Positions 8,647 through 32,000 of a DNA stretch of 32,000 nt are shown here, in pieces. This DNA is from Staphylothermus hellenicus DSM 12710 (GTDB lineage: Archaea > Thermoproteota > Thermoprotei_A > Sulfolobales > Desulfurococcaceae), in contig NC_014205.1 of NCBI RefSeq assembly GCF_000092465.1, forward strand, positions 1,020,001-1,052,000, written 5' to 3'. A model generated the notes under the pieces. The model was not told the DNA's origin. It made no database searches and worked only from the letters and a program-made list of their open reading frames with translations. A program made the translations under genes and the position numbers. Numbering within the stretch: position 1 is the first letter of the stretch; each line of letters starts with the position of its first letter.

Positions 8647-9909
8647 CTAGGATTGAGCGATTAATAGTTTTTCCGTATTGATCGTTTTTGTAGCTAATAC
8701 TAGTAATCCTATGCTAACAATCGCTAATACGCTAATATGAAGTATTGATCTCAAAACATATCCGAGCATATAGGATTGTATAACCAGTATGCTGTGAACA
8801 TATGGAACTATATATAGTGGGTAAAGTATTTCTGGGGGAAGCCTTATATAGTCTACTAAGAAGCCTGTAAAGAAGAATACTATTCCAATAGTTGTCACTA
8901 TTCCAGCAATATTTGATGCGCTCCTTATACCTTTAGTTCTAGTTATAAATGGTAATGCTATAGTTATAGTTGCTAATATCGTGAAGAAAGCGGTTATGGA
9001 ATGTATAAGTAGAAGCATCGGATCAACTATTACGCCGAGACCTATACCTGAAGCAATACTTAATAAGAACATATAAGCCACCAACCCCAACGCATCAGCA
9101 ACAGCTGTTATCAATCCTAGAATTGTAGCAGCAATCATTTTAGAATAAATAATAGAATTAAGAGAGGCAGGGCTTGAAATAAGTAGTTCCATAGTTTTTC
9201 TCTCCCTCTCACCCACTATACCATCTATAACATATGATGCAGCCGGAGTCACCACAAAGCTAAGAGCTAAAACAAGTATTCTAGCAAAAGCAGCCTTTAA
9301 TTCGAACCCTGGCTGTGCTGGAACACCAGTTATTGTAACCACTTCAGTCCTACTCTGTATAGGTTTTCTAAGAGCTTGCGGGATAATTGTAATATTTAGT
9401 ATCTTTGATAACGAATTAATCTTTTCATCAGATAACTTCATGGATAAATAATATAGTACGCTGTTAACAGTAGCTTCAGCTCTCTCAGCTGCTTGAACAC
9501 CTGCTTTCCTATAAATAATTACTCTAGCAGTAGTATTTAGTAATGTAGAGTTTTTAGCGAACCCCTTAGGTATAACAACTGCTAAGTCTATCTTCGGATT
9601 CTTAACTATGCTTTCATTACTGGAAATAGTATAGTTGTATCCGTAACGGGATAATACATGGGTTAAATTGTGGACAACCCATGAAGAATTATATGTTATA
9701 TTTAAGTAATCATTATGATAGCTCGTATTATCAAGATCAATGATTGCGATTAGAACAGGCTGTTGTGTGACAAGTGCTACACCCAGTAATCCGATTAAGG
9801 GAAGCATTATTAATGGTAGAAGTATGCTTGTAAACAATGTCTTCTTATCTCTAATTAGATCTGTGAGTTCTTTCCACATAAGTACCCTTATAAAATAAGT
9901 TGTCCTCAT
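8647..9909 (-). CDS. ABC-2 type transporter permease (NatB-like)
   Basis: 420 aa. N-terminal TM helix, a large extracytoplasmic loop, then about 5 C-terminal TM helices. The start ATG overlaps the stop of the upstream ATPase gene (ATGA at 9906-9909). Confidence 0.75.
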   Translation of the reverse strand: MRTTYFIRVLMWKELTDLIRDKKTLFTSILLPLIMLPLIGLLGVALVTQQPVLIAIIDLDNTSYHNDYLNITYNSSWVVHNLTHVLSRYGYNYTISSNESIVKNPKIDLAVVIPKGFAKNSTLLNTTARVIIYRKAGVQAAERAEATVNSVLYYLSMKLSDEKINSLSKILNITIIPQALRKPIQSRTEVVTITGVPAQPGFELKAAFARILVLALSFVVTPAASYVIDGIVGERERKTMELLISSPASLNSIIYSKMIAATILGLITAVADALGLVAYMFLLSIASGIGLGVIVDPMLLLIHSITAFFTILATITIALPFITRTKGIRSASNIAGIVTTIGIVFFFTGFLVDYIRLPPEILYPLYIVPYVHSILVIQSYMLGYVLRSILHISVLAIVSIGLLVLATKTINTEKLLIAQS

Positions 9910-10643
9910 CCCCGGGTTTCCTCCACCGCTTTTACAAATGCTTCTTCTAAGTTATCAGCACCATAAAGATCCTTTATCTCCTCAGGTGTTCCTTCAACAA
10001 ATATTTTGCCTTGATGAATAAATGCAACCCTATCACATAAGTATTCGACTTCTAACATGTTATGACTGCTAAGTAGCACAGAGGAATTTGTTTCTTTAAC
10101 GTATTTCTTAATCATATGCCTAACTCTTACAGATGCATAAACATCTAATCCACTAGTTGGCTCATCCAGTATAGCTAAGGCAGGCTTTCTCATCAATACT
10201 AGGGCAAGCAGTAGCCGACGCTTCATACCTTTACTATATGTTTCCGCTCTTTTCCTTAATTTATCGCCTAAACCACTAAGTTCCGCGCCATACTTGATCA
10301 TTTTCTCTACATCTCCTACTTCATAAAGCATAGCATACAGTTTTAAGTGTTCATAACCGGTTAACCTAGAATAAACCCCTGCTTCTTCAGGTAAGTAGCC
10401 TATGTTTTTCTTAGCTATGCCTATGTTTTCAACCAGGTTTGCTCCTTCAAATAATACTTTTCCCCTTGTAGGTTTTAATAAACCAGCTATTATTCTAAGT
10501 GTTGTCGTCTTTCCCGCTCCATTAGGCCCTATTAACCCGAATATTTCGCCTGGTTTTATATTGAAACTTATTCCCCTAACAGCATATGTTTTATTATTAT
10601 AGATCTTATGTAGATCGATTACTTGAAGCCTATAATCACTCAA
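9906..10643 (-). CDS. ABC transporter ATP-binding protein (ABC-2/NatA-like)
   Basis: 245 aa. Walker A GPNGAGKTT, signature YSKGMKRRL, Walker B LAILDEPTSGLD, H-loop SSHNM. Confidence 0.9.
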   Translation of the reverse strand: MSDYRLQVIDLHKIYNNKTYAVRGISFNIKPGEIFGLIGPNGAGKTTTLRIIAGLLKPTRGKVLFEGANLVENIGIAKKNIGYLPEEAGVYSRLTGYEHLKLYAMLYEVGDVEKMIKYGAELSGLGDKLRKRAETYSKGMKRRLLLALVLMRKPALAILDEPTSGLDVYASVRVRHMIKKYVKETNSSVLLSSHNMLEVEYLCDRVAFIHQGKIFVEGTPEEIKDLYGADNLEEAFVKAVEETRG

Positions 10644-10743
10644 CGCGTACAGCCCAGTATTACTTAGTTAGTTAAAACACATATTATTACTTAACATATC
10701 ATATAACCGGAGAATTAATATATTCCTATCCATACTAGAAGAA

Positions 10744-11427
10744 ATGGTGGGTTTCCTAGATATGAGTGACCTTGTCAAGCTGAGAACGCTAGAGTTTCTA
10801 AGCAATTATGGAGATAAGGGATACATAGTTCTGAGAACAGCTCTCGATATAGCTCTCGATCCAGGAATTGATCATAGGCTAGGCGATTTTAGCTTTAAAC
10901 ACCTAGTTTTCAGACTTAGAAGGCAAGGAATAAACTATAACCCAGCAAATCTTATTAGGATTCTTGAGAAAGAATATGGCCTCATAGAGAAAACCTATAG
11001 TAGTAAATCTCAGAAATGGTGGAGCTTTATCGATCTAGAACCTATTAGAAAAGCCCTTCTAGAATATAGTGGTGTAGAGGAAGCAGAAGAACCCCGTTTA
11101 AGACTATTACTGATAAAATATAAAAGCATGGAGCCATCCCGGCTCCTAAATGTTCTGAGAAGACTATCTATGAAAGATACACTTAACGCTATTGATAAAA
11201 AAGTCTTCCGCGAAATAGTCTTCGAAGACCTAGACAAGATCACCAGTATACTGGAAGAAATGATGGCCTACGAAGACGTCTTTAGCAAAGAAATAATGAC
11301 GTTACAGGAAATCATGTCTCTAGCTGAACGAATAGCTTCTAAAGTAGAAGAAGGAGCTTCTAGAACTATTAAGAGGAAGATTGAAAAACCACTTATGTCT
11401 AATGAAAAAGAATATGGAGAAGCATAA
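10744..11427 (+). CDS. Hypothetical protein
   Basis: 227 aa with protein-like composition (K/E/L/I rich) and no motif I recognise. It ends 17 nt before the next co-directional gene. Confidence 0.5.
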   Translation: MVGFLDMSDLVKLRTLEFLSNYGDKGYIVLRTALDIALDPGIDHRLGDFSFKHLVFRLRRQGINYNPANLIRILEKEYGLIEKTYSSKSQKWWSFIDLEPIRKALLEYSGVEEAEEPRLRLLLIKYKSMEPSRLLNVLRRLSMKDTLNAIDKKVFREIVFEDLDKITSILEEMMAYEDVFSKEIMTLQEIMSLAERIASKVEEGASRTIKRKIEKPLMSNEKEYGEA

Positions 11428-11444
11428 GTAATAGTTGAAGGATC

Positions 11445-12314
11445 TTGTTACTGCAAGAAATAGCGGCTAGAATAATAATACCTCCACTGAAAGGATTACT
11501 AATTCATTCTCTCTCAAAAGAAGGGTTTAGCCAGAGAAGAATAGCTAAACTACTAGGCATAACTCAGCCGCAAGTACATAAGTATCTAAGTAAACCAGAG
11601 GAATACTATTATAATCTTCTATTATCTCATGGATTCGACATCGATAAAATAAGTAGTTATTTAAACATAATATTATATACTGCTTTAAAAGAGGAACAGT
11701 TAAAACTGGTTCTATTGATGAGCAGTATTGTAAACGATTTATCCATGGAGTATTTATGCAGGATAAAACATGGTGCGAGAGATTATTGTCGTGGCACAAT
11801 GATTGTTGACCCATTCATAGAGCATTATAAATCATTTATTTCAACACTGTTATCAAAATACAACCTGTCTAAGCTAATACCAGAAGTCGGCTCCAACATA
11901 GTTTTTTCTCCACATAAACCAAAAGATATAAGTGATATAATCGGATTATCCGGCAGAATACTAAGAGTAGGCGGAGGCATTAAAGCTGTTGGTGAACCTA
12001 TATATGGTGGTAGCAGGCATTTATCAAGAATACTGCTCATTGCTACAAAATATAATGAAAAATATAGAGCTGCAATGAACATTGTATATGATAAATATAT
12101 ACTGGACAAACTCGCCGATAAAAACTATAAGGTAATGGAGTCCGGACCCCATAAAACACTAGAAGAATTCTGGTTAAACATTGAGAAAACCCTTAAAGAA
12201 AAACCCCAGATTATAGGGGATAAGGGCGGATACGGTTTAGAACCCGTCATATATATTTTCGCGGAGAACCTTTCCAAACTAGAAGAAATAATACGAATTA
12301 TCCTATACGACTAA
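11445..12314 (+). CDS. ThiR-like regulator: N-terminal HTH fused to ThiN-like (thiamine-phosphate-synthase-like) domain
   Basis: 289 aa. HTH segment GFSQRRIAKLLGITQPQVHKYLS. The C-terminal IPEVGSNIVFSP...IGLSGRILRVGGGIKAVGEPIYGGSRHLSRILL matches the ThiN domain pattern. This architecture corresponds to archaeal ThiR-type regulators (established family; assignment by recall). Confidence 0.6.
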   Translation: MLLQEIAARIIIPPLKGLLIHSLSKEGFSQRRIAKLLGITQPQVHKYLSKPEEYYYNLLLSHGFDIDKISSYLNIILYTALKEEQLKLVLLMSSIVNDLSMEYLCRIKHGARDYCRGTMIVDPFIEHYKSFISTLLSKYNLSKLIPEVGSNIVFSPHKPKDISDIIGLSGRILRVGGGIKAVGEPIYGGSRHLSRILLIATKYNEKYRAAMNIVYDKYILDKLADKNYKVMESGPHKTLEEFWLNIEKTLKEKPQIIGDKGGYGLEPVIYIFAENLSKLEEIIRIILYD

Positions 12315-12375
12315 ATAATTTGTCTTGTCTAGAGCTTATTAAAAAATGAAATAATCACTATTTGATCAGGAACAG

Positions 12376-13308
12376 GTGGATACATTGCAGTATTATGATT
12401 TATGCATTGTTGGTGGAGGAAGTATAGGGGGGATAATAGCCTATTATTCTTTTAGGGGAGGAATAACTAGTATACCAGTCTATTATCGAAGCATTGAAAG
12501 CATTGAAGCAATAATGAAGAATGGAGGCTTAACGATAAAATATGGTGATAAAGAATATCTTTTACCCATAATTCCCGTTCATCATAGTAAACCAATTGGT
12601 AAATGCAGATTCGTAATAAATACTGTGAAAGCATACCATGTTAAAGATACAATTAACTTAATGCATAAGATAACCGATGAAGACTCATTAATCTTAATGC
12701 TACAAAATGGTTTTGGCAGCCTAGAACTAGTCGAGGAAAAAATGCTTAACCGATACGTTGCTGGAGGAGTAGTATTCATTGGCGCTGAACGAATAAATAG
12801 ATATTATATACTACACCATGGAGGTAGAACCATTATCGCAGGGAGAAGAAAAGGGTTTACAGCCAAGTTATTGGAGTTAATGAATATTCTTAACAGGGGA
12901 GGATGCGATTTCCGAGTAACATCAAATATAGATCTATACAGATGGATAAAGCTAGGAGTAAATGCTGTTATTAACCCATTAACTGCAATAACACGTTCTA
13001 AGAACAAAATAGTCCTAACACAATATGGTAGAATTCTAGCAGAAAAAATAATTGACGAACTAATCATTGCCGCGGAGAAATATGGTTTCAAACTTGATAA
13101 GAAAAAACTCCTAACAACTATTTTTAGAGGAGCCAAGAATACCTCGGAAAACTATTCTAGTATGGCTCAGGATATAATGAATAATAAGCCTACCGAGATA
13201 GATTACATTAATGGATTCATAGCTAAACACGTAGGGGAAAAATCGGTTAATGAAGTTATAACACTTATTGTTCACTTAATAGAAGAATCCTACATGAAGA
13301 ATCATTAA
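12376..13308 (+). CDS. panE: 2-dehydropantoate 2-reductase (ketopantoate reductase)
   Basis: 310 aa. Rossmann IVGGGSIGG, LQNG motif, K..VN..INPLTA, and SSMAQDI...PTEIDYINGFI, which is typical of the ApbA/PanE C-terminal domain. GTG start. Confidence 0.8.
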   Translation: MDTLQYYDLCIVGGGSIGGIIAYYSFRGGITSIPVYYRSIESIEAIMKNGGLTIKYGDKEYLLPIIPVHHSKPIGKCRFVINTVKAYHVKDTINLMHKITDEDSLILMLQNGFGSLELVEEKMLNRYVAGGVVFIGAERINRYYILHHGGRTIIAGRRKGFTAKLLELMNILNRGGCDFRVTSNIDLYRWIKLGVNAVINPLTAITRSKNKIVLTQYGRILAEKIIDELIIAAEKYGFKLDKKKLLTTIFRGAKNTSENYSSMAQDIMNNKPTEIDYINGFIAKHVGEKSVNEVITLIVHLIEESYMKNH

Positions 13309-13375
13309 TCTCTATATTTCACTATAATAAATCATAATAATCTAGCTAATCAATTATTCTACTAGGTGTTAATCA

Positions 13376-14191
13376 TTGAAGAAGATAACAGTTAAAGATA
13401 TATTGAAAATGAAGGGGAAGAAGAAAATCGTTATGATAACCGCTTATGATTATCCATTCGCCAAACTCGTCGATGAAGCAGGGGTAGACATTATTCTCGT
13501 AGGGGATAGTGCTGGAATGGTTGTTCACGGACTACCATCAACTATTCCTGTAACAATGGATATGATGCTAACACATGTTGCAAGTGTTGCTAGAGCTAAG
13601 CCTAGAGCATTAATTGTGGGTGATATGCCTTTTCTAAGCTATGAAGCAAGTATTGAGGAAGCTGTTAGGAATGCTGGCTTAATGTTAAAATCAGGAGCTG
13701 AAGCCGTTAAGATCGAGGGTGGAAGCGAGATGGTTGATGTAGTAAAAGCACTTGTAAGAGCAGGTATTCCTGTAATGGGCCATATAGGTTTAACTCCTCA
13801 AAGATACCTCTTACTAGGTGGTTATAGGCGGAGAGGCGTGAAAGAATATGAAGCTGAAAAAATAATTGAGGATGCAAAGGAGCTTGAAAAAGCAGGAGCA
13901 TTCTCGATCGTAATAGAATTTACAGCTGCTGATATAGCTGAGGAAATAACCAGAGAAGTATCTGTTCCCACAATATGTATTGGTAGCGGGCCATACTGTG
14001 ATGGACAAGTACTTGTTCTCCATGATTTACTTGGAATATATGAGGAAATCCCTCCATTCGCGAAGAAATACGCTGACCTCAGAAGAATAGTGATTGACTC
14101 GGTTAAGAAGTATGCTGAAGAAGTTCGAAACGGAGTATTTCCTGAAAGAAAACATTATTTCTTCAGTAAACGCCGTGGGGCTGAAAAATAA
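13376..14191 (+). CDS. panB: 3-methyl-2-oxobutanoate hydroxymethyltransferase (ketopantoate hydroxymethyltransferase)
   Basis: 271 aa. MITAYDY, VGDSAGMVVHG, AVKIEGG and GHIGLTPQ are PanB signatures. TTG start with GGTG 8 nt upstream. Confidence 0.9.
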   Translation: MKKITVKDILKMKGKKKIVMITAYDYPFAKLVDEAGVDIILVGDSAGMVVHGLPSTIPVTMDMMLTHVASVARAKPRALIVGDMPFLSYEASIEEAVRNAGLMLKSGAEAVKIEGGSEMVDVVKALVRAGIPVMGHIGLTPQRYLLLGGYRRRGVKEYEAEKIIEDAKELEKAGAFSIVIEFTAADIAEEITREVSVPTICIGSGPYCDGQVLVLHDLLGIYEEIPPFAKKYADLRRIVIDSVKKYAEEVRNGVFPERKHYFFSKRRGAEK

Positions 14192-19293: not shown

Positions 19294-20007
19294 GTGTTCT
19301 TATTGACACAGAGTATTGGAGAAGAAATAATAAATATTCTCCGTAAACATTACAAGTTGAACCTGAAAGAATTCATTGCTCCAAATATCCGTGACAAATC
19401 ATTGTTCGAATACATTATAGGTGTTATGCTTAGCCAAAATACAAGCGATAAAAATGCTATTCGAGCCTATTTCAATCTTAAAAAGATATATGGAGAAATA
19501 ACACCTGATAAAATCCTCTCTACACCCATAGATAAATTAATTGAGGCATTAAAACCTGCCGGAATGTATAATCAAAGAGCCCAACGCATCATTGAACTAG
19601 CCAAGATATTTACCGAGAAGAACGTAGAGGAAGAACTTGGAAAACTAATAGAGGAGGGAAAACTTAGAGAGGCTAGAAAATACCTAGTCAGTTTACCAGG
19701 TGTTGGATTAAAAACAGCCGATGTAGTCTTATTAATGTATTATGGGCAGCCAGTATTCCCAGTTGATACCCATATTCGTAGAGTGACTAAGAGATTAGGA
19801 TATATTGGCAAAGACGATTACGAAGCCATATCTAGTTGGTGGATGAAACAATTAAAACCAAACGATTACTTAGAGACGCATCTCCTTCTAATAACGCATG
19901 GTAGAAAAACATGTAAAGCGAGAAAACCATTATGTAATATATGCCCTATAAGGAAATACTGTAAATACTATTATGAAACAAAACAACTAATTTCTAGAGG
20001 GAATTAA
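19294..20007 (+). CDS. nth: Endonuclease III (HhH-GPD DNA glycosylase/AP lyase with 4Fe-4S cluster)
   Basis: 237 aa. HhH motif LVSLPGVGLKTADVVLL (catalytic Lys), VDTHIRRV (Asp), and C-x6-C-x2-C-x5-C (CKARKPLCNICPIRKYC). The start may be the TTG at 19303, 6 nt after GGTG. Confidence 0.9.
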   Translation: MFLLTQSIGEEIINILRKHYKLNLKEFIAPNIRDKSLFEYIIGVMLSQNTSDKNAIRAYFNLKKIYGEITPDKILSTPIDKLIEALKPAGMYNQRAQRIIELAKIFTEKNVEEELGKLIEEGKLREARKYLVSLPGVGLKTADVVLLMYYGQPVFPVDTHIRRVTKRLGYIGKDDYEAISSWWMKQLKPNDYLETHLLLITHGRKTCKARKPLCNICPIRKYCKYYYETKQLISRGN

Positions 20008-20027
20008 TCCTTCCTATTGTATCCTAA

Positions 20028-20999
20028 TTAGATTTGCTTAAATCTCTCATTTAAGTATATATTGCCTCTCCAATGGTATCCTAGTGCTTCCCAGTAGCCA
20101 TCAACGTATTTATCTGTGAAAATTATTTTTCCCACCCATTTCGCGCTTTTCCATCCATAAAGATGTGGAATAATTATTCTTGCTGGAAAACCTTGTTCAA
20201 GCGGTAATGATTCGTTATTCATTTTGAGAGCTAGAATTGATTTATCGGATACAAAGTCTTCATATGGAACAATGGTTGTATATCCGTCAAGCGATACTAT
20301 GTAAACCCATCTCACTCCAGGCTTAACCCTGGCTTCTTCGGCAAACCTTTTTAGCTGAACCCCTGTCCATTCAACATCTTTCACACTCCACCCAGTTACA
20401 CAGTGGAAATCTGTTTTGATAGTAATGTGCTCCATTTCAAGAAGGTCTTTATATGTATATTCGAGTTGTTTCTCTACTTCCCCAGTTATCTTCAGAGACC
20501 ACTCATTTATTCTCACATATGGTTGGCCTAGGATACGGTATATTATGAAGCCAGGTATGAATCTTTGGCCAGGAGGTGTTGCCTCATATTCTTTAACTGG
20601 TTTTTCCCTAACTAGTTGTTTAGTAAACAAAGCACTTAGCTTCTCGATTCCTAGAAGATTTGTCTTAGTTATTTCCTCATATTTTTTCCCAATAGTGAAA
20701 ACTATCATTACCAATTTGTTTTTTCTCGTTACAGCCCTTATACCAATATATCCCTTTCTATCTGAGCAGTTCAAATGATATCTATAAATAATATATTCAT
20801 CATTTACTGGCTCATTGTCCACGAATTCTAAACTACATTTATCATTATCTAATATGAAGACATGAGCTAAATACTCCCATATTAGTGGTTTTAGAATAGA
20901 ATAATCAATACTTCTATATTTCTTATTGATAAAGCATTGAATCACTTTTACAATACCCTTCTTAAATAAGCCTGGAGAGCCTGTGGCTACACAATTCAA
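20028..20999 (-). CDS. Sulfite-oxidase-family molybdopterin-binding oxidoreductase domain protein with ~135-aa N-terminal extension
   Basis: 323 aa. The C-terminal ~185 aa carry FHCVTGWSVKDVEWTGVQL, GFPARIIIPHLYGWKSAKWV and GYWE, which match the Oxidored_molyb (YedY/SUOX-like) pattern. I do not recognise the N-terminal part. TTG start is uncertain. Confidence 0.7.
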   Translation of the reverse strand: MNCVATGSPGLFKKGIVKVIQCFINKKYRSIDYSILKPLIWEYLAHVFILDNDKCSLEFVDNEPVNDEYIIYRYHLNCSDRKGYIGIRAVTRKNKLVMIVFTIGKKYEEITKTNLLGIEKLSALFTKQLVREKPVKEYEATPPGQRFIPGFIIYRILGQPYVRINEWSLKITGEVEKQLEYTYKDLLEMEHITIKTDFHCVTGWSVKDVEWTGVQLKRFAEEARVKPGVRWVYIVSLDGYTTIVPYEDFVSDKSILALKMNNESLPLEQGFPARIIIPHLYGWKSAKWVGKIIFTDKYVDGYWEALGYHWRGNIYLNERFKQI

Positions 21000-21112
21000 A
21001 ATAGTTCACCTAAACAAATACTATTGGGAATATTAAAGTAATTAGGATATTTTTAGTGTTTATATTTGAAAATATGTTATTGCAGAGGATTATTTATCCG
21101 GGTGAATAAAAG

Positions 21113-22303
21113 ATGATGATGAAGAGTTTAAGAGAATTGGGTAATGAGAAGAAAATAACTCTGATTTCCCTATATATCTATACATTTATCCGCGGTGCTG
21201 GAAGAGCTAGTTATATGTTCTTGTATCCCTTATTCCTAATAAGTATAGGATACTCAACAAAAGATCTAGGCTTAATAGCAACTATTGCGTCTGCCCTAAT
21301 CATAGTAATACTTCCAATTATAGGTCATCTTGTCGATCTTGGATGGGCGATCGAGGTATTGTTTTTATCTGGTTTATCCCTGTCATTAGCATTAATAATT
21401 CCAGTAATTTATCCAAGTTTTTACTCATTAATAATATCTTATGCATTAAATATGCTTAGCTTATATCTATGGTCTCCTTCGAGAAATAAGATAATAGGCG
21501 CAATTATTCCCCAGATATTATTAGGTAGAGTTTACAGTTTATTTGTGATCTTATTTAACTCGTCTAGAACCATAACTCCTTTCATATTGGGCAGATTAAC
21601 TGAGACATTCGGTTATGAATACTTGATGATTTGGATGGGGATTTTTAGTTTTGCAGGAACATTTATAGTTTATCTGATCCTTGTTCTTAGACAAAACATG
21701 TTTTCACGTGCACCCATTGGAAAAGCTGATGTTATTAATAGTTATAAGGCTATGTTAGCGTTTGATAAAAGCGTTATAGCTATTATTATATTTGCTTTAA
21801 TTGATAGTTTTGCGTGGAGGCTTTGGTTCCCACTATTAAATGCTTATCTAAAAGAATATAGGAGATTTACTGATCCTATTATTGGCGATTATAATACTGT
21901 TATCGGGTTATCGATGCTGGTGACTTCGTATTTTGCAGGCGTTATTACAGATAGGATCAAACCTATAAAATCCCTCATAGTATATGAGCTTATAGGAGCT
22001 GTTGGTATTCTCTTAATAAATCTTCCTCATCCATATATTCATTTATCAGCATTGCTTATAGGATTCAGTATTGCTTTCTGGGTGTCCGCATATAATACAC
22101 TGATTACGGTCATGTATGGAGTAGAGAAGATCGGTAGATTAAGAGTATTAACCGATTCTGTGAGAAATATTTCATCTATACCGGCACCACAAATAGGAGG
22201 CTATTTAATGTCCATTAATCCATTAATAACATTTACTATAAGCGCCCTCCTCATGTCAATTGCTATTATTCCTCTGAGAAAGATAAGGGTAAAAACTAGT
22301 TAG
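21113..22303 (+). CDS. MFS transporter
   Basis: 396 aa with about 12 predicted TM helices and a central loop. Substrate is not assignable. Confidence 0.7.
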   Translation: MMMKSLRELGNEKKITLISLYIYTFIRGAGRASYMFLYPLFLISIGYSTKDLGLIATIASALIIVILPIIGHLVDLGWAIEVLFLSGLSLSLALIIPVIYPSFYSLIISYALNMLSLYLWSPSRNKIIGAIIPQILLGRVYSLFVILFNSSRTITPFILGRLTETFGYEYLMIWMGIFSFAGTFIVYLILVLRQNMFSRAPIGKADVINSYKAMLAFDKSVIAIIIFALIDSFAWRLWFPLLNAYLKEYRRFTDPIIGDYNTVIGLSMLVTSYFAGVITDRIKPIKSLIVYELIGAVGILLINLPHPYIHLSALLIGFSIAFWVSAYNTLITVMYGVEKIGRLRVLTDSVRNISSIPAPQIGGYLMSINPLITFTISALLMSIAIIPLRKIRVKTS

Positions 22304-22321
22304 TAATAGTGGTGCTACTAG

Positions 22322-23182
22322 TTGACAAGAGGCAAGCTTCTCAAAAAACTAGCAGTAAAGGTGCTGGGCGAGGAGAAGGCGAGGAAAATATGGGGTAGAA
22401 TAGAGTTTATTGGAGATATAGCTGTTATCCGTGTACCATTCGATATTGACCCATATGAGCTGAAACCATTAGCTGAAGCTATAGTTGAGGAGCTCAAATA
22501 TGTTAGGAGTGTCTGGGCAGGATTACCAGGTGTTAAAGGACCTTACAGGCTTAGACCATTTATCCACTTAGCTGGTGAGAATAGAAGTGAGACTATATAT
22601 AAGGAGCATGGATGCTTATTCAAAATAGACATAACCAAGGTATATGTATCACCTACTCTAAACTATGAACATAAAAGAATAGCACAACTAGTTAAGCCTG
22701 GAGAAACAATTACAAACATGTTTGCTGGCGCAGGTTTTTTCAGCATAATTATTGCACGCCATTCTAAGCCGAAAAAAGTCTATAGTATAGATATAAACCC
22801 ATATGCTTACCGTTACATGGCTGAAAACATAAGGCTTAACAAAGTTGAAGACATAGTCATACCTATTATGGGAGATGCTGCTAAGGTGATCGAAGAAAAA
22901 CTAGTTAACACAAGCGATAGGGTATTAATGCCATATCCCGAATTAGCTCTTGACTACTTGGTTTATGCATTGAAAGCTCTGAGGAATAAGGAGGGTTGGA
23001 TACATGTCTATCTACATATTGTAGCAGAAAAAGATTCTTCGCCGCTAGGTATTGCTGAAAACATTTTAAGCAGCGAACTATATGATTTAGGTATTCAAAA
23101 ATTCGAAGTTGTAAATAGGAGAATTGTTAGAACAATTGGTCCGAGAAAATACCAAGTAGTCTTAGATGTTCATATATATTAG
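22322..23182 (+). CDS. Class I SAM-dependent tRNA methyltransferase/aminocarboxypropyltransferase of the Trm5/Taw2 (Met-10+) family
   Basis: 286 aa. SAM motif I ITNMFAGAGFFSI, SIDINPYAYRYMAENIRLNKV, and a MPYP post-motif. TTG start with GGTG 7 nt upstream. I cannot separate Trm5 from Taw2 by eye. Confidence 0.7.
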   Translation: MTRGKLLKKLAVKVLGEEKARKIWGRIEFIGDIAVIRVPFDIDPYELKPLAEAIVEELKYVRSVWAGLPGVKGPYRLRPFIHLAGENRSETIYKEHGCLFKIDITKVYVSPTLNYEHKRIAQLVKPGETITNMFAGAGFFSIIIARHSKPKKVYSIDINPYAYRYMAENIRLNKVEDIVIPIMGDAAKVIEEKLVNTSDRVLMPYPELALDYLVYALKALRNKEGWIHVYLHIVAEKDSSPLGIAENILSSELYDLGIQKFEVVNRRIVRTIGPRKYQVVLDVHIY

Positions 23183-23207
23183 CATCATTTATTTTCTTAG
23201 TACTTTA

Positions 23208-26775: not shown

Positions 26776-26804
26776 TAAATGGTAGCATAGTAATTAGCTT
26801 AATA

Positions 26805-27833
26805 GTGGATATACTTATCTATACTGGTATGGGTGATTATATGGATGTTCGCGATATACCTGTATTAAAAGATGCTCGTTCAGAGTTGTTGAAGGAAGTT
26901 GTTAAGGATTATTTTGTTAAGGAAGATATGAGTGTTTGTGATCTAATTAATGCGTTGAGAGATGCTCATGGATTTATGGCTGGACATATTAGTAGAGCCG
27001 CAGAGATCCTCTATGAGATGTGGAGCGATAAAGAAGCAACGAGGATATTGTCTTTTACAGGAAACCTTGTATCAACAGGTTTGAGAGGCTTACTTGCCCA
27101 ACTAATTCTCGAGGGGTTCGCCGACATAGTTATCACTACATGTGGAACAATTGATCACGACATAGCAAGGGGTACTGGGCATCCATACTATAAGGGGGAT
27201 TGGAGACTAGATGATTCAATGCTAAAGGTTATCGAGGTTCATAGATTAGGCAATGTTTTGATACCAGTAGAAAATTATGGATTAGCTGTTGAGAAGTTTA
27301 CGCGTAACCTACTCGATGAACTTGTTAAGAAGAAGAAGGAGTGGCCGCCCAGCGAATTATTATATGAAGCAGGCAAAAAGATCAATGATCCATATAGTAT
27401 ATTGAGAGCAGCTACCCAGAGAAATGTTCCAATATTCGTCCCAGGAATATTTGATGGAGCATTCGGTACACAACTAGTTTTCCACAGCCCCTTCTCCGGT
27501 TTAAAAACTGATCTTATCAGTGACGAGAAAAAACTCATGGATAAAATCTTTGAATCACACAAGCTTGGAGCATTAATTATTGGTGGAGGTATAAGTAAGC
27601 ATCACACTATTTGGTGGGCACAATTCAAAGACGGGCTTGACTATGCAGTATACATTACTACAGCGGTAGAATATGATGGTAGTTTGAGCGGGGCACAACC
27701 ACGTGAAGCTATAAGTTGGAACAAGATTAAGCCGTCGGGTAAAAGTATTGTAGTATATAGTGATGCAACAATTGCATTACCATTAATTATAGCTGGTGCT
27801 AAGTGTTTAATGAAAAAATCTACGGAGAAGTAA
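26805..27833 (+). CDS. dys: Deoxyhypusine synthase
   Basis: 342 aa. TTCGTIDHD, IIGGGISKHH and the active-site Lys context REAISWNKI. GGGTGAttatATG suggests the start is the ATG at 26841. Confidence 0.85.
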   Translation: MDILIYTGMGDYMDVRDIPVLKDARSELLKEVVKDYFVKEDMSVCDLINALRDAHGFMAGHISRAAEILYEMWSDKEATRILSFTGNLVSTGLRGLLAQLILEGFADIVITTCGTIDHDIARGTGHPYYKGDWRLDDSMLKVIEVHRLGNVLIPVENYGLAVEKFTRNLLDELVKKKKEWPPSELLYEAGKKINDPYSILRAATQRNVPIFVPGIFDGAFGTQLVFHSPFSGLKTDLISDEKKLMDKIFESHKLGALIIGGGISKHHTIWWAQFKDGLDYAVYITTAVEYDGSLSGAQPREAISWNKIKPSGKSIVVYSDATIALPLIIAGAKCLMKKSTEK

Positions 27834-27836
27834 GTA

Positions 27837-29216
27837 TTGGAAGAAACAATAGTACATATGGGATTCGACGACATAGATACACCGTTCGGTGGCTGCACAA
27901 CACATTTCGCAGCTTCCATACTAGTTAAATGGATTAAGGATAAAAGAATCAAACTAGTCGACTATCCAAACCTTATAAGATTAAATCCTGGAGTACCATG
28001 GAAAACAAGAGGTAATGGAGCTGTTGTTCTTAGGTTCAAGGTTAAAGATCATGAAGAAGCCATGAAACTCCTTGAAGAAGCATATGATGAAGCATTACAA
28101 TATCTTAGAAAATATCATCATCCCCAACACCATCCAGTCATAGGCATATATGTGGGTGAGCTAAGTGAGAGAATTAAGTGGATTGGGTGGAAAGCTGTCC
28201 ATGATCTCATCCCGCTAGATTTAATGTATAGAGTTCTTAGGAAAGAAAAGGATAAAATTGAGTATAGATTGCTGAGGAAAGATAAGAAGCGTGGATTAAT
28301 CGGTGTTTTCTCGGCAATAGGATATAGGATGACAAATACAGATTATACATATGAACTAATAGCTTATAGATCCGAGGAATTCCTGGATAAGCCTAGACAA
28401 GTCGATGCTGAGAGCGTAAAATATATGGATAAACTATTTCATAGTGAAACTATTCTTAACTATGACTATGAAATAAATAGGCCATTAATAACACCGCATG
28501 GAGGAGACCCTGTTCTACTAGGAATACGGGGAGAAAACCCTGAAGTATTGATCAAAGCATACAATATAATAAAGATAAACGAGCCAGTCCCTATACGGTT
28601 AATTTATCGAACCAATCAACACACAGATGCTCATCTAAGGAGAATTAATGATTTAGGAGAAGCCTTCATTTATCGTGGAGTAAGAGTTAGAGTATGGGTA
28701 GCAAGTATTCCTAAAAGGATCATTGGTGGACACGTGATTTTCAAAGTCACCGATGGAAAAAGGTTTATTGATGTAGCAGCATATGAGCCTACTGGAAAAC
28801 TTAGAAGGATCGTGGAAAAACTCCGTCCCGGGGACGAAGTAGAGGTCATGGGTATAGTCAGGCCTCAAAGCTCTAAGCATGGACCAACAATTAATCTTGA
28901 GAAGATACATATCATAATGGTTAAACCATTGATAAAGCTTGAAAACCCCATATGTCCTAGATGTGGGGCTAGAATGAAGAGTGCTGGTAGAGGGAAAGGT
29001 TATAAGTGCCCTAAATGTGGCTATAGAGATCCCAATGCTAAAAAGATTATTCGGGTAATAAAGAGGGATCTCGAGCCCGGATGGTATGAACCCCCTCCTA
29101 GAGCATTTAAGCATTTAATGAAGCCGCTAAAAAGATTTGGGAAGGAGAAAAACTATTTCCCAGAAGAAATTGAACCAAGCAATTTTATATGGTATAATAA
29201 TAGGGTTTTAAAATAA
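27837..29216 (+). CDS. tiaS: tRNA(Ile2) 2-agmatinylcytidine synthetase
   Basis: 459 aa. N-terminal MGFDDIDTPFGGCTTH (compare the GIDDTDS..GMCTTY kinase-like domain), a central OB fold, and a C-terminal zinc ribbon CPRCGARMKSAGRGKGYKCPKCG. It starts 3 nt after the dys stop; an alternative start is the ATG at 27858. Confidence 0.85.
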   Translation: MEETIVHMGFDDIDTPFGGCTTHFAASILVKWIKDKRIKLVDYPNLIRLNPGVPWKTRGNGAVVLRFKVKDHEEAMKLLEEAYDEALQYLRKYHHPQHHPVIGIYVGELSERIKWIGWKAVHDLIPLDLMYRVLRKEKDKIEYRLLRKDKKRGLIGVFSAIGYRMTNTDYTYELIAYRSEEFLDKPRQVDAESVKYMDKLFHSETILNYDYEINRPLITPHGGDPVLLGIRGENPEVLIKAYNIIKINEPVPIRLIYRTNQHTDAHLRRINDLGEAFIYRGVRVRVWVASIPKRIIGGHVIFKVTDGKRFIDVAAYEPTGKLRRIVEKLRPGDEVEVMGIVRPQSSKHGPTINLEKIHIIMVKPLIKLENPICPRCGARMKSAGRGKGYKCPKCGYRDPNAKKIIRVIKRDLEPGWYEPPPRAFKHLMKPLKRFGKEKNYFPEEIEPSNFIWYNNRVLK

Positions 29217-29237
29217 AACAAATATGACATATATGAT

Positions 29238-29560
29238 GGGATGAGGAAATACCGTTTGTCCCCCACCGCATTATGTGTGTTTGTATATTTATTTTTGTCT
29301 GCGGTAGGGACTTCCACCTCTCCCACAACCCCCAAGAGGGGTTGTGGGGTCATGAGTGGCTGTCGAGGCCAACGGCACAGGCCTCCCATCTACAGTAAAC
29401 CCTCATGGGTCTCGGAGCATAGCTCCCATCAACCCACAGGAACACAGATCAATATTGAAAAATATAATCTGGAATACTTAAAGCTTCCCATCCCGGGAAC
29501 GAACTGATACGTGAAGAAGTGGTCCTCTGCTGACCGCTAGAGAAACCTGTGAGTTGGAGT
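29238..29560. ncRNA. Unassigned GC-rich structured RNA candidate (element R1); strand unresolved
   Basis: I counted 61% G+C over 29301-29440, against an AT-rich background.
Perfect or near-perfect helices:
- 29258-29270 with 29300-29311: 5+6 bp enclosing a 29-nt AU-rich loop.
- 29322-29332 with 29338-29348: 11 bp.
- 29365-29370 with 29380-29385: 6 bp.
- 29351-29359 with 29400-29407: 8 bp plus a bulge, enclosing the previous hairpin.
- 29414-29418 with 29422-29426: 5 bp.
- Termini GGGATG (29238-29243) with CATCCC (29489-29494).
The ORFs predicted here have a non-native Pro/Arg/Gly/Ser-rich composition. Confidence 0.55.
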
Positions 29561-29564
29561 TGTT

Positions 29565-30080
29565 ATGTATAGGATAACACATGTTATAATTGGTTTTGGA
29601 TTTGGATTACTTTTAAGCAGAGATCTTAGTCTTTCTCTTTTATATGGATTTATGGGTGGTCTCGGCGGCTATATACCAGATTTTGATCTAGCTTTTAAGC
29701 ATAGGAAGACGCTTCATAACATTATTGTGCCGCTAATTATATTCTTACTCTCCTATGTTGCGCTTCTCTATCTCCATGTAAGGTTTTATTCATGGATACA
29801 ATTTGGTATTATCAAGAATATTGTTATAGCTTTTCTTGGTGGATGGATTCTGCATATTTTGGTTGATTCATTTACTAAGCGTGGAGTATATATATTGTAT
29901 CCTTTAAGCAATTATCGTTTGAGAATACCTATATTTAGAAGCTCTGGTTTAGTTGGCAATATCCTATTTATTATGTTGGCTTTCATAATGTATTATTTCT
30001 GGCTTAAAAATACCGGTTTAGAAAATGTAATAGATTATTTATATGAGTATTTTAGAATGTTTTTAATCAGCTCTTCTTAG
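29565..30080 (+). CDS. Membrane-bound metal-dependent hydrolase-like protein (YdjM/DUF457-like)
   Basis: 171 aa with 4-5 TM segments and conserved-looking His/Asp positions (THVIIGFG, IPDFDL, KHRKTLHN, HILVDSFT). The 3' end overlaps the convergent gene by 14 nt. Confidence 0.6.
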   Translation: MYRITHVIIGFGFGLLLSRDLSLSLLYGFMGGLGGYIPDFDLAFKHRKTLHNIIVPLIIFLLSYVALLYLHVRFYSWIQFGIIKNIVIAFLGGWILHILVDSFTKRGVYILYPLSNYRLRIPIFRSSGLVGNILFIMLAFIMYYFWLKNTGLENVIDYLYEYFRMFLISSS

Positions 30081-31791
30081 TGATCCCTCTTGTTGCAATA
30101 ATGTATAACAATACAACTATTACTAGAACACCTATACTTCCTATGGTTGCGTATAGCAGTGCTTGTTGTTCTCTCTGCTTATACTCGTTGATCTTAGCTT
30201 CATAGCTACTGATTTGATCTGTTAGATTTATATTTTCTGCTTTGCATTTTCCTAGAGATTGATTAACATTGAATAATGTCTGGTTTAGCGAGTTCAACTG
30301 TTTCTCTAGATTATTTATTTCATTATTTAAGCTCTGTATCTTTAGGTTGATAAAGGAGATCTCATTTATAGCATTAGATAATCCAACACTATATCCTCTA
30401 ACTAGTGATGCAATAAATGAAGCTACATTAGCTGGTTGTAATGTAAATGTTGATAGTATTTTCCTCAATTCTTTACCATACACTATTAATTCTCCTTTGC
30501 CCACACCATAATATTCTGGGTTATTAATTAATACCAGTTTTTTACCGCCGAAGGATATTGTTGTGAAAGATATGTTTCTACTAATTAGTTCTGATAAAAC
30601 ACTGGTTTCATCTCTTTCGACAAAATAGAGTCCTGGCTCCACATATTTAAGTCCTTGAATCGATAGATCCTCTCCATGATCATTAAGTGTGAAAGGAGAA
30701 TATATTATTGTAGTAATGTTTTCGTTAATCATATTTTTCGTGATATTTATTATTTCGGATAAACCATTATATGCTAGTTTCTCTAGTTTACTTAGTTGCT
30801 CCCTATTAATATAGCCATGCATATATCCTGTCCATAAGTCATATATTAGAGGATACTCTACAAAATTTATTCTGGCCGATCTATATTTGTATGCTGTTGT
30901 CAGCATTGACTCATAAAAGCTAATTGTTTCGTTGATAAGCCATTCTAGATCATCTTCTTCCATATACCTAATATATTTAAACGATATCCTCGGAACAACA
31001 GGTCTATTAAACTTCTCAAAGTATTCGGAGAACCATTGATCAGCTCTTCTTGTTCCAGGAGTGAAGAGTATAATATGTGTATTATTTATTTTTAGAACTC
31101 TAAACCTGAGATAATATATTCCAGGCTCAACCGATAATTTTTCATTGGTTATATTAAACTTTAATATTGGAGTAACATTTGTTTCTTTACTGAACTTTAT
31201 GCTATCCACATAGTTTTCAATAGATAAAACAAAGTACTGGGTTGATACTGATAATTTTATGGTTGTATTTAGTTGATCCCATTTAGTTGTCCCATTAATA
31301 GGTATGATGAATAGTGCTGGCTTTATTATTTTATTTGTCCCGTTAAAGTATGGATTCATTGTTCTATTATGAACTTGTGGATTTATCGAGGATAAGCCTA
31401 GAAACATTGTATCAAGTGTTCCCCATAAATTGGTTAATAATTGTTTAGGTACTAGCTTATATAGCTGAGTATAGGTGTTGTTTGGGAGTAGTGCTGTATT
31501 ATTATCTAGCACGATGGCTTTTGATAGATCCCATGAATTGTTCACTAGAACTATTTCATTATAGGACAACGTGTACGGTGGCATCGGGTTTATATATGCT
31601 TTAAAGGTGATATTCTCTAGGTACTTCAGCGGCGAAGTATTAACAGCTTTTTCAAGGGAGAATCCAGGCACGTATAGGAATAGAAATCTTAGATATGCTG
31701 GTTGCTGTGAATAAGTAACTGTTGTTATAGGTGTTACTAATTGAAGCAACAACATGGTTATTATTGCTAGTAGCATGTATTTCTTATTCAT
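30067..31791 (-). CDS. Secreted, heavily N-glycosylation-sequon-rich protein with C-terminal coiled coil and TM anchor (SlaB-like architecture)
   Basis: 574 aa. N-terminal signal peptide MNKKYMLLAIITMLLLQLV and about 19 N-x-S/T sequons by my count. A heptad-like Asn/Leu/Gln-rich segment (INLKIQSLNNEINNLEKQLNSLNQTL...YEAKINEYKQREQQ) is followed by a single TM helix (LLYATIGSIGVLVIVVLLYIIA) and a basic tail. Confidence 0.75.
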   Translation of the reverse strand: MNKKYMLLAIITMLLLQLVTPITTVTYSQQPAYLRFLFLYVPGFSLEKAVNTSPLKYLENITFKAYINPMPPYTLSYNEIVLVNNSWDLSKAIVLDNNTALLPNNTYTQLYKLVPKQLLTNLWGTLDTMFLGLSSINPQVHNRTMNPYFNGTNKIIKPALFIIPINGTTKWDQLNTTIKLSVSTQYFVLSIENYVDSIKFSKETNVTPILKFNITNEKLSVEPGIYYLRFRVLKINNTHIILFTPGTRRADQWFSEYFEKFNRPVVPRISFKYIRYMEEDDLEWLINETISFYESMLTTAYKYRSARINFVEYPLIYDLWTGYMHGYINREQLSKLEKLAYNGLSEIINITKNMINENITTIIYSPFTLNDHGEDLSIQGLKYVEPGLYFVERDETSVLSELISRNISFTTISFGGKKLVLINNPEYYGVGKGELIVYGKELRKILSTFTLQPANVASFIASLVRGYSVGLSNAINEISFINLKIQSLNNEINNLEKQLNSLNQTLFNVNQSLGKCKAENINLTDQISSYEAKINEYKQREQQALLYATIGSIGVLVIVVLLYIIATRGITKKS

Positions 31792-31825
31792 AGTCTACAC
31801 CACATATTCATCCTTGATTACTCAT

Positions 31826-32000
31826 AGACAGTGAACTGCTCCCCGCTTATGTGGGGGAGCTTCTCCCGTTCCACCCGCCTTCACGGCTTAGGGTTTCATC
31901 TGGGAGTTCAGGGGGGTTCACAGCTCCCCCATCCCACGCCTCACATTAAGGCATGGGCTATATTGATTGCCGAGTTCAAATCTCTATACGGGAACATCCC
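31826..32000. ncRNA. Unassigned GC-rich structured element (R2), truncated by window end; related to R1
   Basis: I counted 63% G+C over 31831-31940.
Helices:
- GCTCCCC (31838-31844) with GGGGAGC (31854-31860).
- Alternative 9-bp pairing GGGGGAGCT (31853-31861) with AGCTCCCCC (31922-31930).
- CTCCC (31863-31867) with GGGAG (31902-31906), enclosing ACCC-GCC-ttcac-GGC-tta-GGGT.
- GTGAAC (31831-31836) with GTTCAC (31916-31921).
No plausible CDS is present. Confidence 0.45.

Follow-up and report, generated by a model that had tools for sequence, protein, structure and literature searches.

Several described systems of Archaea resemble one part or another of the locus analyzed here. Archaeal C/D-box sRNAs are short RNAs of about 59 nt with ordered boxes, a 12-nt D guide and a 3-nt D'-C' loop, in which the 11-12 nt next to box D' normally guide methylation. 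Bulge-helix-bulge introns occur in crenarchaeal stable RNA genes (tRNA and rRNA) and in the cbf5 mRNA, where they are G+C-rich, structured and joined to the exons by clean junctions. IS200/IS605 palindrome-associated elements have neither terminal inverted repeats nor a target duplication and carry subterminal hairpins, and in TnpB/IscB omega RNA regions a structured RNA is read out across one conserved end into the flank. Archaeal MITEs, such as the Sulfolobus SM elements and the ~260-nt element for which 14 copies were reported in Staphylothermus marinus (PMC2678158), are non-coding, lie in intergenic or promoter DNA, disrupt genes and may be present in one species and missing from a close relative.

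The window is the whole 32,000-nt stretch of the Staphylothermus hellenicus genome that was analyzed. The original prediction described its interval 29238-29560 as a single G+C-rich, multi-helix non-coding element. In our analysis this interval is a composite of the two halves of a small-RNA gene and a 239-nt insert, designated R1, that separates them (Table 1).

In nine related lineages, S. marinus among them, the spacer between tiaS and ydjM contains an uninterrupted C/D-box sRNA of 59-60 nt, with box C GGGAUGA, box D' CUGA, box C' RUGAAGA and box D CUGA. Conservation in the nine-lineage alignment begins exactly at GGGATGA, ends after box D and is interrupted by a variable D'-C' loop. The boxes C, D', C' and D occur in order, with guides of about 12 nt, and conservation does not extend beyond boxes and guides. 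For the intact S. marinus copy, Rfam gave full-length plus-strand matches to 14 families, all of them C/D-box families, although all 14 matches were weak and below the gathering score (best match sR17, E = 0.004). A metagenome scan with a 21-mer of the sRNA recovered five further uninterrupted loci. The gene order tiaS-sRNA-ydjM is kept in the relatives, the tiaS product of the window is 91% identical to S. marinus TiaS, and an A/T-rich tract precedes the sRNA in every relative. In the window this tract, at 29206-29218, can be read as TATA-like or as an oligo-T run, as had been predicted, and it is the putative promoter of the sRNA. On these features the conserved small RNA is evidently real and of C/D-box type. 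It differs from typical archaeal C/D-box sRNAs in a C-D' spacer of 20 nt rather than 12 nt and in a G instead of U at position 2 of box C. The C/D-box sRNA went unrecognized in the original prediction.

Comparison of the window with an S. marinus locus (L171) by blastn defined the insert. Positions 26795-29253 of the window correspond to 8962-11420 of that locus and positions 29492-31830 to 11420-13760, so that R1 occupies exactly 239 nt, the placement of a single C at the junction being ambiguous. The join is clean and shows no more than 1 base of microhomology. The two sRNA halves together are 59/60 identical to S. marinus (44/45 bases in the 3' part, which also gave a partial match to sR1), while the adjoining spacer is heavily diverged. 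R1 is missing from the orthologous spacer of S. marinus and of the eight other related lineages, and the site is intact there; this is the presence/absence polymorphism expected of MITEs. Both junctions were recovered in assemblies of independent read sets of the same strain (left junction in L164 and L165, right junction in L162 and L163), thus R1 is not an assembly artefact. By these alignments, R1 is a 239-bp DNA that evidently entered this Staphylothermus lineage after its split from S. marinus and landed inside the conserved 59-60-nt sRNA gene, downstream of box C and upstream of the D' guide.

Table 1. Coordinates of the features in and around the interrupted sRNA gene (positions of the window; a point marks features without a strand).
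Feature	Position	Strand	Description
tiaS (tRNA-Ile2 agmatidine synthase), upstream neighbor	27837..29216	+	Pfam TiaS_FLD, TiaS_TCKD, Zn_ribbon_TiaS
A/T tract TTTTAAAATAAAA	29206..29218	+	TATA-like for the sRNA; oligo-T run on the minus strand
sRNA 5' part	29238..29253	+	Box C GGGAUGA (29238-29244) and spacer GGAAAUACC; identical to S. marinus L002 4405-4420
R1 proper	29254..29492	.	Lineage-specific insertion; blastn and alignment against S. marinus; absent at nine related loci
Subterminal hairpin 1	29258..29311	.	5+6 bp (29258-29270/29300-29311) closing a 29-nt U/G/A-rich loop
Hairpin 2	29322..29348	.	11-bp perfect stem 29322-29332/29338-29348, 5-nt loop, 100% complementary
Compound hairpin 3	29351..29407	.	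CAUGAG/CUCAUG, CUGU/ACAG, GAGGCC/GGCCUC; motif copy CTCCCATC at 29383-29390
Hairpin 4	29407..29435	.	GGGU/ACCC around GGAGC-AUA-GCUCC; motif copy CTCCCATC at 29423-29430
A/T-rich imperfect palindrome	29445..29471	.	TATA-like runs on both strands; folds as a 5+5-bp hairpin; candidate internal promoter
Third motif copy TTCCCATC	29485..29492	+	Right end of the insert; complementary to the sRNA box-C region
sRNA 3' part	29493..29535	+	D' guide CCGGGAACGAA, D' CUGA 29504-29507, loop UAC, C' GUGAAGA 29511-29517
sRNA 3' part, continued	29518-29529, 29530-29533	+	12-nt D guide, then D CUGA; invariant block in nine lineages
ydjM-family membrane protein gene, downstream neighbor	29565..30080	+	Pfam YdjM
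R2	31830..32000	.	Second window-specific GC-rich insertion, 2.3 kb from R1; extends past the window end

The G+C content is 0.60 at 29300-29399 against 0.36 over the whole window, which agrees with the predicted island of about 60% G+C. The parts of R1 follow each other as four G+C-rich hairpins, then a palindrome rich in A/T, and lastly a short tail with complementarity to box C. The predicted helices are all present at the stated places. The 11-bp hairpin is present and perfect, as is the 5-bp GGAGC/GCUCC helix (29414-29418/29422-29426). The 5+6-bp helix of hairpin 1 is present, but its 29-nt loop UUAUGUGUGUUUGUAUAUUUAUUUUUGUC contains seven G and one C and is not AU-only. The nested stem-loop of hairpin 3 is also present, but its stem is 6+4+6 bp and not 8+6 bp. 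The predicted terminal helix, GGGAUG.GGAA (29238-29248) with UUCCCAUCCC (29485-29494), does pair with one bulged A; however, it joins the box-C region of the host sRNA to the 3' end of the insert. The motif YTCCCATC occurs three times in R1, each copy complementary to the 5' box-C region, as stated in the prediction. Only four copies exist in the whole window (expectation 2.1), these three included. Hairpin 1 includes the sequence CCGCATTATGTG (29266-29277), which is common to R2, as well as a plus-strand T5 run, and it is retained in the 85 °C fold of both strands.

The folding of this region exceeds that of dinucleotide shuffles. For the whole spacer at 37 °C, z was -3.4 on the plus strand and -4.4 on the minus strand, and for the insert alone at 85 °C the values were -5.8 and -4.3, respectively. 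The helices of R1 are almost all pure Watson-Crick and therefore give no strand preference; both strands fold equally well, as the DNA palindromes of mobile elements typically do. The original prediction took the G+C-rich helices as the hallmark of a structural RNA. R1 is indeed strongly structured and non-coding, but it is not a conserved RNA gene, since it is absent in S. marinus and eight other lineages. Conservation in relatives, whose lack the prediction had named beforehand as counting against it, was not found at the orthologous locus.

Searches for coding potential and for known RNA classes gave no relevant match. The translations of the two long ORFs in R1, used as bait in a protein collection, had no relatives, and an exhaustive HMMER search with the 88-aa ORF returned three matches, all to low-complexity sequence only. 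These results support the reading of the R1 region as non-coding. Nothing relevant was found in Rfam with the whole window at the gathering score, or with 29100-29700 on both strands at E <= 10 with permissive filters, where no RNase P, SRP, tRNA or intron model appeared. A tRNA or split tRNA was found neither by ARAGORN nor by the Rfam tRNA models. In this respect the earlier statement that the element fits no recognizable RNA class was borne out. Among the introns, an exhaustive scan found no bulge-helix-bulge motif that would cut after 29252/53 and 29491/92, and none that was convincing elsewhere in the region on either strand. For a group I intron the exon should end in U and the insert in G; here they end in ...ACC and ...CAUC. 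A group II intron would have GUGYG...AY ends, which are missing, and 239 nt is far too short; neither intron type had an Rfam match. Lastly, the minus-strand GAUGGGAG modules were inspected by hand as kink-turn, H/ACA or C/D elements. The bulge was too short or misplaced in these readings, and no ACA or D boxes were seen.

R1 is not the only insertion in the window relative to S. marinus. R2 lies near the window end, the two being within 2.6 kb, and has replaced the TATA region of a 574-aa gene. The window has just two copies of the motif CCGC(A)TTATGTG (0.03 expected), one in R1 and one in R2 (CCGCTTATGTG, 31843-31853). Both copies of this 11-nt motif are at offset 13 from the left junction, in the same orientation and within a subterminal GC hairpin. 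However, the ends of R1 and R2 gave no significant global alignment (p = 0.14-0.7), and the 11-nt motif is the sole sequence that they share, so that placing R1 and R2 in the same family rests on this short motif and on their architecture.

No second copy of R1 was found in the 32-kb window, in the fetched loci or in 21 kb of S. marinus. The 11-bp hairpin pattern gave 15 chance bacterial matches in the GTDB representative genomes, with no archaeon among them and the source genome itself unmatched. One 27-mer of R1 had no match in JGI metagenomes, six patterns gave chance matches only in IMG/VR, and blastn against phage and plasmid collections returned no match to R1. In short-read assemblies of the strain, breaks over about 50 kb occurred solely inside R1 and R2; for example, the Logan contigs restart at 29450, inside the A/T-rich palindrome. 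Such breaks would fit either repeated sequence or poor coverage of GC-rich hairpins.

Classical transposon features were also sought. The ends of R1, GTTTGTCC... and ...TTCCCATC, are non-complementary and form no terminal inverted repeat. Only one inverted repeat (29238-48 with 29485-94) encloses the entire insert, and its left arm belongs to the host sRNA. No target-site duplication occurs at the homology-defined junctions, which show only the one ambiguous C, and no transposase is encoded in the window. Thus R1 resembles the archaeal MITEs in its size class (about 240-260 bp), in its non-coding nature, in its position in intergenic or promoter DNA, in the disruption of a gene and in its presence in one species but not in its close relative; it differs from them in the lack of terminal inverted repeats and target-site duplication and in a G+C content far above that of the host genome. 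The S. marinus segment L171 19636-19902 has a 14-nt perfect terminal inverted repeat and is probably one of the published MITEs of that species. It shows no similarity to R1 or R2. R1 shares with the IS200/IS605 palindrome-associated elements the absence of duplication and of terminal inverted repeats and the subterminal hairpins. Unlike in those elements, its end hairpins are dissimilar, one A/T-rich and the other G+C-rich, and no tnpA or tnpB is nearby. Read by eye, the sequence does not fit the IS608-type pairing of a hairpin foot with a cleavage site, and the number of C residues at the junctions disagrees with a 2-bp crossover of the IS607 serine-recombinase type.

We prefer, tentatively and at a little under even confidence, to read R1 as a non-autonomous, hairpin-rich insertion element whose small family is undescribed. 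A clean insertion, empty sites in the relatives and a second insert, built alike and carrying the 11-nt motif too, argue for it, as do the assembly breaks inside R1 and R2, the equal folding of both strands and the precedent of the S. marinus MITE. It is weakened by the lack of a second copy in the sequence searched, of classical ends and of a transposase in the window, by the slight likeness of R1 and R2 and by their lack of similarity to the probable S. marinus MITE. The hairpins of such an element would be the parts that are recognized or that its mobility, or an RNA encoded by it, requires, and the need to stay folded at about 85-90 °C would account for their high G+C content. The A/T-rich segment may supply promoter activity, which would explain how two insertions into promoter regions are tolerated. 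The plus-strand T5 run in the loop of hairpin 1 would stop most transcripts from the sRNA promoter, so the full sRNA is probably disabled or cut to its 3' half.

Other readings of R1 were weighed against this one. It is unlikely, but conceivable, that R1 serves as the gene cassette of a structured ncRNA, new and lineage-specific, with a length of about 200-220 nt. Such an RNA would be read from the minus strand, from a promoter TTATATTT (29467-29460) with a start near 29437 to an end at the oligo-T run 29218-29206, and it would span four hairpins and an antisense copy of the sRNA box C. This would account for the strong structure, which survives 85 °C, and for a minus strand free of T-runs from 29437 to 29219, in contrast to the plus strand with its T5 in hairpin 1. 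One helix also has a G·U pair on the minus strand against an A·C mismatch on the plus strand, but with symmetric helices the evidence for a strand is this single pair. R2 has the same orientation, and it needs transcription from the minus strand if the 574-aa gene, whose TATA region it replaced, is still expressed. However, both promoter and terminator were identified solely by eye, the cassette is missing at the locus in all relatives, and no homologue was found in the collections searched. This reading overlaps with that of a mobile element, as the cassette may itself be mobile; its RNA would then read over the conserved end, as the guide RNAs of transposons do. Rather improbably, foreign or ectopic DNA may have been taken up at a break in a single event; R1 would then have neither mobility nor a function of its own, and the sRNA gene would be a recent pseudogene. 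The clean junction, the missing transposon ends and the absence of a second copy or homologue in the sequence searched are what such a capture would leave. Yet two GC-rich, hairpin-rich inserts within 2.6 kb, with an 11-nt motif at equal offset, are unlikely for random captures. In addition, R1 folds far beyond its composition (z = -5.8 at 85 °C), one 8-mer in three copies suggests an internal organization, and R1 is no fragment of any known coding sequence.

The interruption might instead be harmless to the sRNA, R1 being an intervening sequence (an unusual intron or expansion domain) that is removed from the pre-sRNA or tolerated in it, so that the C/D sRNA is functional. We regard this as quite improbable. 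R1 leaves the D' guide (11 nt adjoining D') and the complete C'/D half intact and falls immediately beyond the 11-12 nt adjoining D', and the sRNA halves match S. marinus at 59 of 60 positions in spite of the diverged spacer beside them. The three UCCCAUC motifs are complementary to the 5' end and box-C region of the sRNA, but this pairing would compete with formation of the C/D kink-turn. R1 is like archaeal bulge-helix-bulge introns in lying, with a clean junction, within a crenarchaeal stable-RNA gene and in being G+C-rich and structured; it differs from them in having no such motif at its junctions or plausibly elsewhere. The end rules of group I and group II introns and the Rfam intron models speak against it as well, and 40 nt into R1 the plus strand has a terminator-like T5 run. 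In the literature searched, no C/D sRNA gene was reported as host of a bulge-helix-bulge intron, and no interrupted one was described from an archaeon. That R1 is a known housekeeping RNA, such as RNase P RNA or SRP RNA, in a divergent or rearranged copy is effectively refuted. The resemblances to RNase P noted in the original prediction did not hold up. Only short look-alike strings (GAGGAAAT, GGAAGUCCC and GUAAACCC...GGAGCA) favor such a copy; they are on opposite strands, and GAGGAAAT at 29244 is box C and spacer of the C/D sRNA. Archaeal RNase P RNA (RNaseP_arch, type T) gave no covariance-model match on either strand, and archaeal SRP RNA no Rfam match, at the gathering score or at E <= 10. 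Neither RNA shows the conservation of such a gene at this place, R1 being absent from the orthologous spacer in all nine lineages, and an essential RNA is not expected as a lineage-specific insertion within another gene.

For annotation of A/T-rich hyperthermophiles, the lesson is that a "GC-island" ncRNA candidate need not be a conserved RNA gene. The locus tiaS-sRNA-ydjM is a clean and apparently unannotated C/D sRNA locus across the sampled Staphylothermus-related (Desulfurococcaceae) lineages. The split sRNA is a natural experiment on how far the gene of a C/D RNP tolerates interruption, and it bears on the methylations predicted in this strain. If the preferred reading as a mobile element is true, Staphylothermus has insertion elements with G+C-rich hairpins and without the usual transposon ends, of which no report was found in the literature, and such elements are able to land in guide-RNA genes and promoter regions. 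A bolder and doubtful proposal is a so far undescribed class of insertion cassettes in hyperthermophilic Crenarchaeota, made of G+C-rich hairpin chains, of which R1 and R2 would be the first two; each would have its own promoter and a structured, guide-like RNA of about 200 nt that reads over a conserved end into the flank. In a rarer variant, R1 would be an intervening sequence without a bulge-helix-bulge. Were that variant true, this would be the first interrupted archaeal C/D-box sRNA gene. If R1 is spliced out, or if it encodes a guide-like RNA, it would represent a new kind of archaeal RNA element.

The G+C-rich, hairpin-rich sequence R1 between tiaS and ydjM is an insertion specific to this lineage. 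It interrupts a conserved C/D-box sRNA gene and has a sister insertion, R2, close by. The spacer that holds it (29217-29564) is flanked upstream by tiaS and downstream by a YdjM-family membrane protein gene. The TiaS protein shares 91% identity with its Staphylothermus marinus counterpart, which places the source of the window close to S. marinus. The orthologous spacer is just 111-125 nt long in S. marinus and three other lineages, and in all of these it contains the conserved block GGGATGAGGAAATACCCCGGGAACGAACTGATATGTGAAGAAGTGGTCCTCTGCTGACC. A more distant MAG (L004) has a 17-nt spacer without the block. In the window, the block is cut in two; its 3' part lies in a blastn match (29492-29536) with 44 of 45 identical bases. 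When a 21-kb stretch of S. marinus (L171) was searched with blastn, window 26795-29253 aligned with L171 8962-11420 and window 29492-31830 with L171 11420-13760. R1 is the clean insertion of 239 nt between these two matches, ambiguous by a single C. Scanning metagenomes for the block's invariant 21-mer identified five additional loci. Four of these extend far enough upstream and have tiaS ahead of an unsplit block, and the fifth contig (L169) begins within the block. Independent assemblies of the same strain also show both R1 junctions.

Features of R1, R2 and their surroundings (window coordinates unless noted)
Feature	Coordinates	Strand	Remarks
R1	29254-29492		239 nt
C/D-box sRNA	29238-29253 + 29493-29535		conserved block, first 16 nt and remainder; split by R1
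C/D-box sRNA, S. marinus	L002 4405-4463		unsplit
ORF, 88 codons	29241-29507	+	passes through R1
ORF, 78 codons	29153-29389	-	passes through R1
Helix, 5+6 bp	29258-29311		closes 29-nt loop
Hairpin, 11 bp	29322-29348		perfect
Nested stem-loop	29351-29407		6+4+6 bp
GGAGC/GCUCC hairpin	29414-29426
Pairing	29238-29248 with 29485-29494
574-aa gene	30067-31791	-	intact; R2 directly upstream
R2	31830-32000, off window end		inserted relative to S. marinus; rich in G+C and in hairpins
267-nt element, S. marinus	L171 19636-19902		perfect 14-nt terminal inverted repeats GCAGTCCACCGCCC / GGGCGGTGGACTGC; internal perfect 16-bp hairpin

The gene interrupted by R1 is a C/D-box sRNA. Ten lineages carry it (the window and nine relatives: L002, L003, L005, L006 and L166-L170), always with tiaS on one side and ydjM on the other. 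In the nine-lineage comparison, conservation runs from exactly GGGAUGA (box C) to CUGACC (box D), while the flanks are unconserved. Box D' reads CUGA and is followed by a 3-nt loop that is different in nearly every lineage; box C' reads RUGAAGA, and the D guide has 12 nt. The unsplit S. marinus copy matched no Rfam family at threshold. Its 14 sub-threshold matches were all to C/D-box families on the plus strand, nearly all at full model length, with sR17 the best (E = 0.004). At 20 nt, the C–D' spacer of this sRNA is unusually long (about 12 nt is usual), and R1 occupies the position of the extra spacer bases (auacccc) in the Rfam model alignments. The 11 nt adjoining D' and the entire C'/D half are left intact. 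The sRNA halves are identical to S. marinus at 59 of 60 positions while the adjoining spacer has diverged, which indicates either a recent insertion or a split gene that is still functional.

The structural description in the original prediction largely held. The island reaches 60% G+C, compared with 36% window-wide, the helices are all present where they had been placed, and a count confirmed YTCCCATC in triplicate (three copies inside 110 nt of the spacer, four in the entire window). The nested stem-loop was found without its claimed 8+6 bp pairing, and the 29-nt loop is not AU-only as had been described. Both strands of the spacer outperform dinucleotide shuffles in folding at 37 °C (z = -3.4 for the plus strand and -4.4 for the minus strand), as do those of R1 alone at 85 °C (z = -5.8 and -4.3). 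Nearly all R1 pairs are Watson-Crick; therefore, the helices are uninformative on strand.

R2 coincides with the sole other G+C island in the window (31805-31986). The flank common to the window and S. marinus stops at ...ACTCATAGAC (31821-31830), and beyond it R2 consists of successive G+C-rich hairpins (folding z = -2.8 and -4.6) and then an A/T-richer stretch. R2 had no Rfam match and no overall alignment with R1. Both contain CCGC(A)TTATGTG (CCGCTTATGTG), present in two copies in the window versus 0.03 expected. In each element the copy begins at base 13, counted from the left junction; the two share an orientation and straddle the stem-to-loop boundary of the first hairpin. Short-read assemblies of the strain (L162-L165, several read sets) are continuous over about 46 kb on the left side, break in R1 in every sample (left contig end 29325, right contig start 29450) and break in R2 at about 31882. 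These breaks fit repeated sequence; poor coverage of G+C-rich hairpins could also cause them.

The likeliest identity of R1 is a non-autonomous insertion element that is related to R2 and belongs to an undescribed family. No terminal inverted repeat or target duplication was found at the R1 junctions, and the sole end-to-end inverted repeat has host sRNA sequence as one arm. A MITE of ~260 nt that ends in inverted repeats is reported to occur in 14 copies in S. marinus (PMC2678158). The 267-nt element in L171 is probably one of these and is unrelated to R1 and R2.

Other S. marinus features were also observed. L171 17115-17220 holds a G+C-rich intergenic hairpin of ~85 nt (CCCCCCAAGU...ACUUGGGGGG) with an inner CCCCC/GGGGG stem, a two-sided internal loop and no Rfam match; this may represent a small RNA missing from the annotation, perhaps of H/ACA type. 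At a synteny breakpoint (L171 2140-2680 versus window 19981-23198), the window has three genes (molybdopterin oxidoreductase domain, MFS transporter and TYW2/Trm5 methyltransferase), and S. marinus instead has a G+C-rich island (L171 2472-2569). The S. marinus phosphodiesterase gene (L171 4786-7020) is without a window counterpart.

Several other explanations were considered for R1. The whole window had no Rfam 15 match at gathering score, neither RNase P, SRP, tRNA nor intron models identified R1, and ARAGORN found no tRNA. At E <= 10, 29100-29700 gave only noise besides a partial C/D-box match at 29497-29535. A known housekeeping RNA is thus extremely improbable, and the predicted novel conserved or RNase P-like structural RNA was unsupported. 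A new ncRNA gene of this lineage, an idea that overlaps with a mobile cassette, is unlikely, if the least so of these alternatives. Neither long ORF has relatives, and an exhaustive search with the 88-aa ORF gave low-complexity matches only; both are most likely by-products of G+C-rich sequence.

We consider it very unlikely that R1 is an intervening sequence of a non-canonical kind, or an expansion domain, within the sRNA. No bulge-helix-bulge motif cuts at the R1 junctions and none elsewhere is convincing on either strand; the R1 ends are unsuitable for group I or group II introns, and a group II intron would also need to be longer. Capture of foreign DNA as a single event is slightly less probable than the new ncRNA gene. 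Searches for R1 homologues found none in phage or plasmid collections, in GTDB representative genomes with the hairpin pattern as query (a set that did not return the source genome itself), or in IMG/VR or JGI metagenomes.

As an insertion element, R1 would have arrived as DNA once this lineage and S. marinus had diverged. The hairpins would be its functional parts, acting as DNA or within an RNA that the element encodes, and would be G+C-rich because stability is needed near 90 °C. An A/T-rich palindrome (29445-29471) has TATA-like runs in both directions. In the rightward direction, about 26 nt would separate it from the downstream start of the sRNA 3' half and of ydjM; in the leftward direction, a structured RNA of ~200 nt would be initiated, ending at the oligo-T at 29218-29206. 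Judged from sequence, R2 has taken the place of an apparent TATA region of the 574-aa gene; since that gene is intact, it would now have to be transcribed from or through R2. A T5 run on the plus strand (about 29292-29296) should halt most transcripts from the sRNA promoter, so that the full-length sRNA is probably no longer made. With modest probability, R1 is an expressed RNA cassette of a new kind, or the locus is an interrupted sRNA gene.
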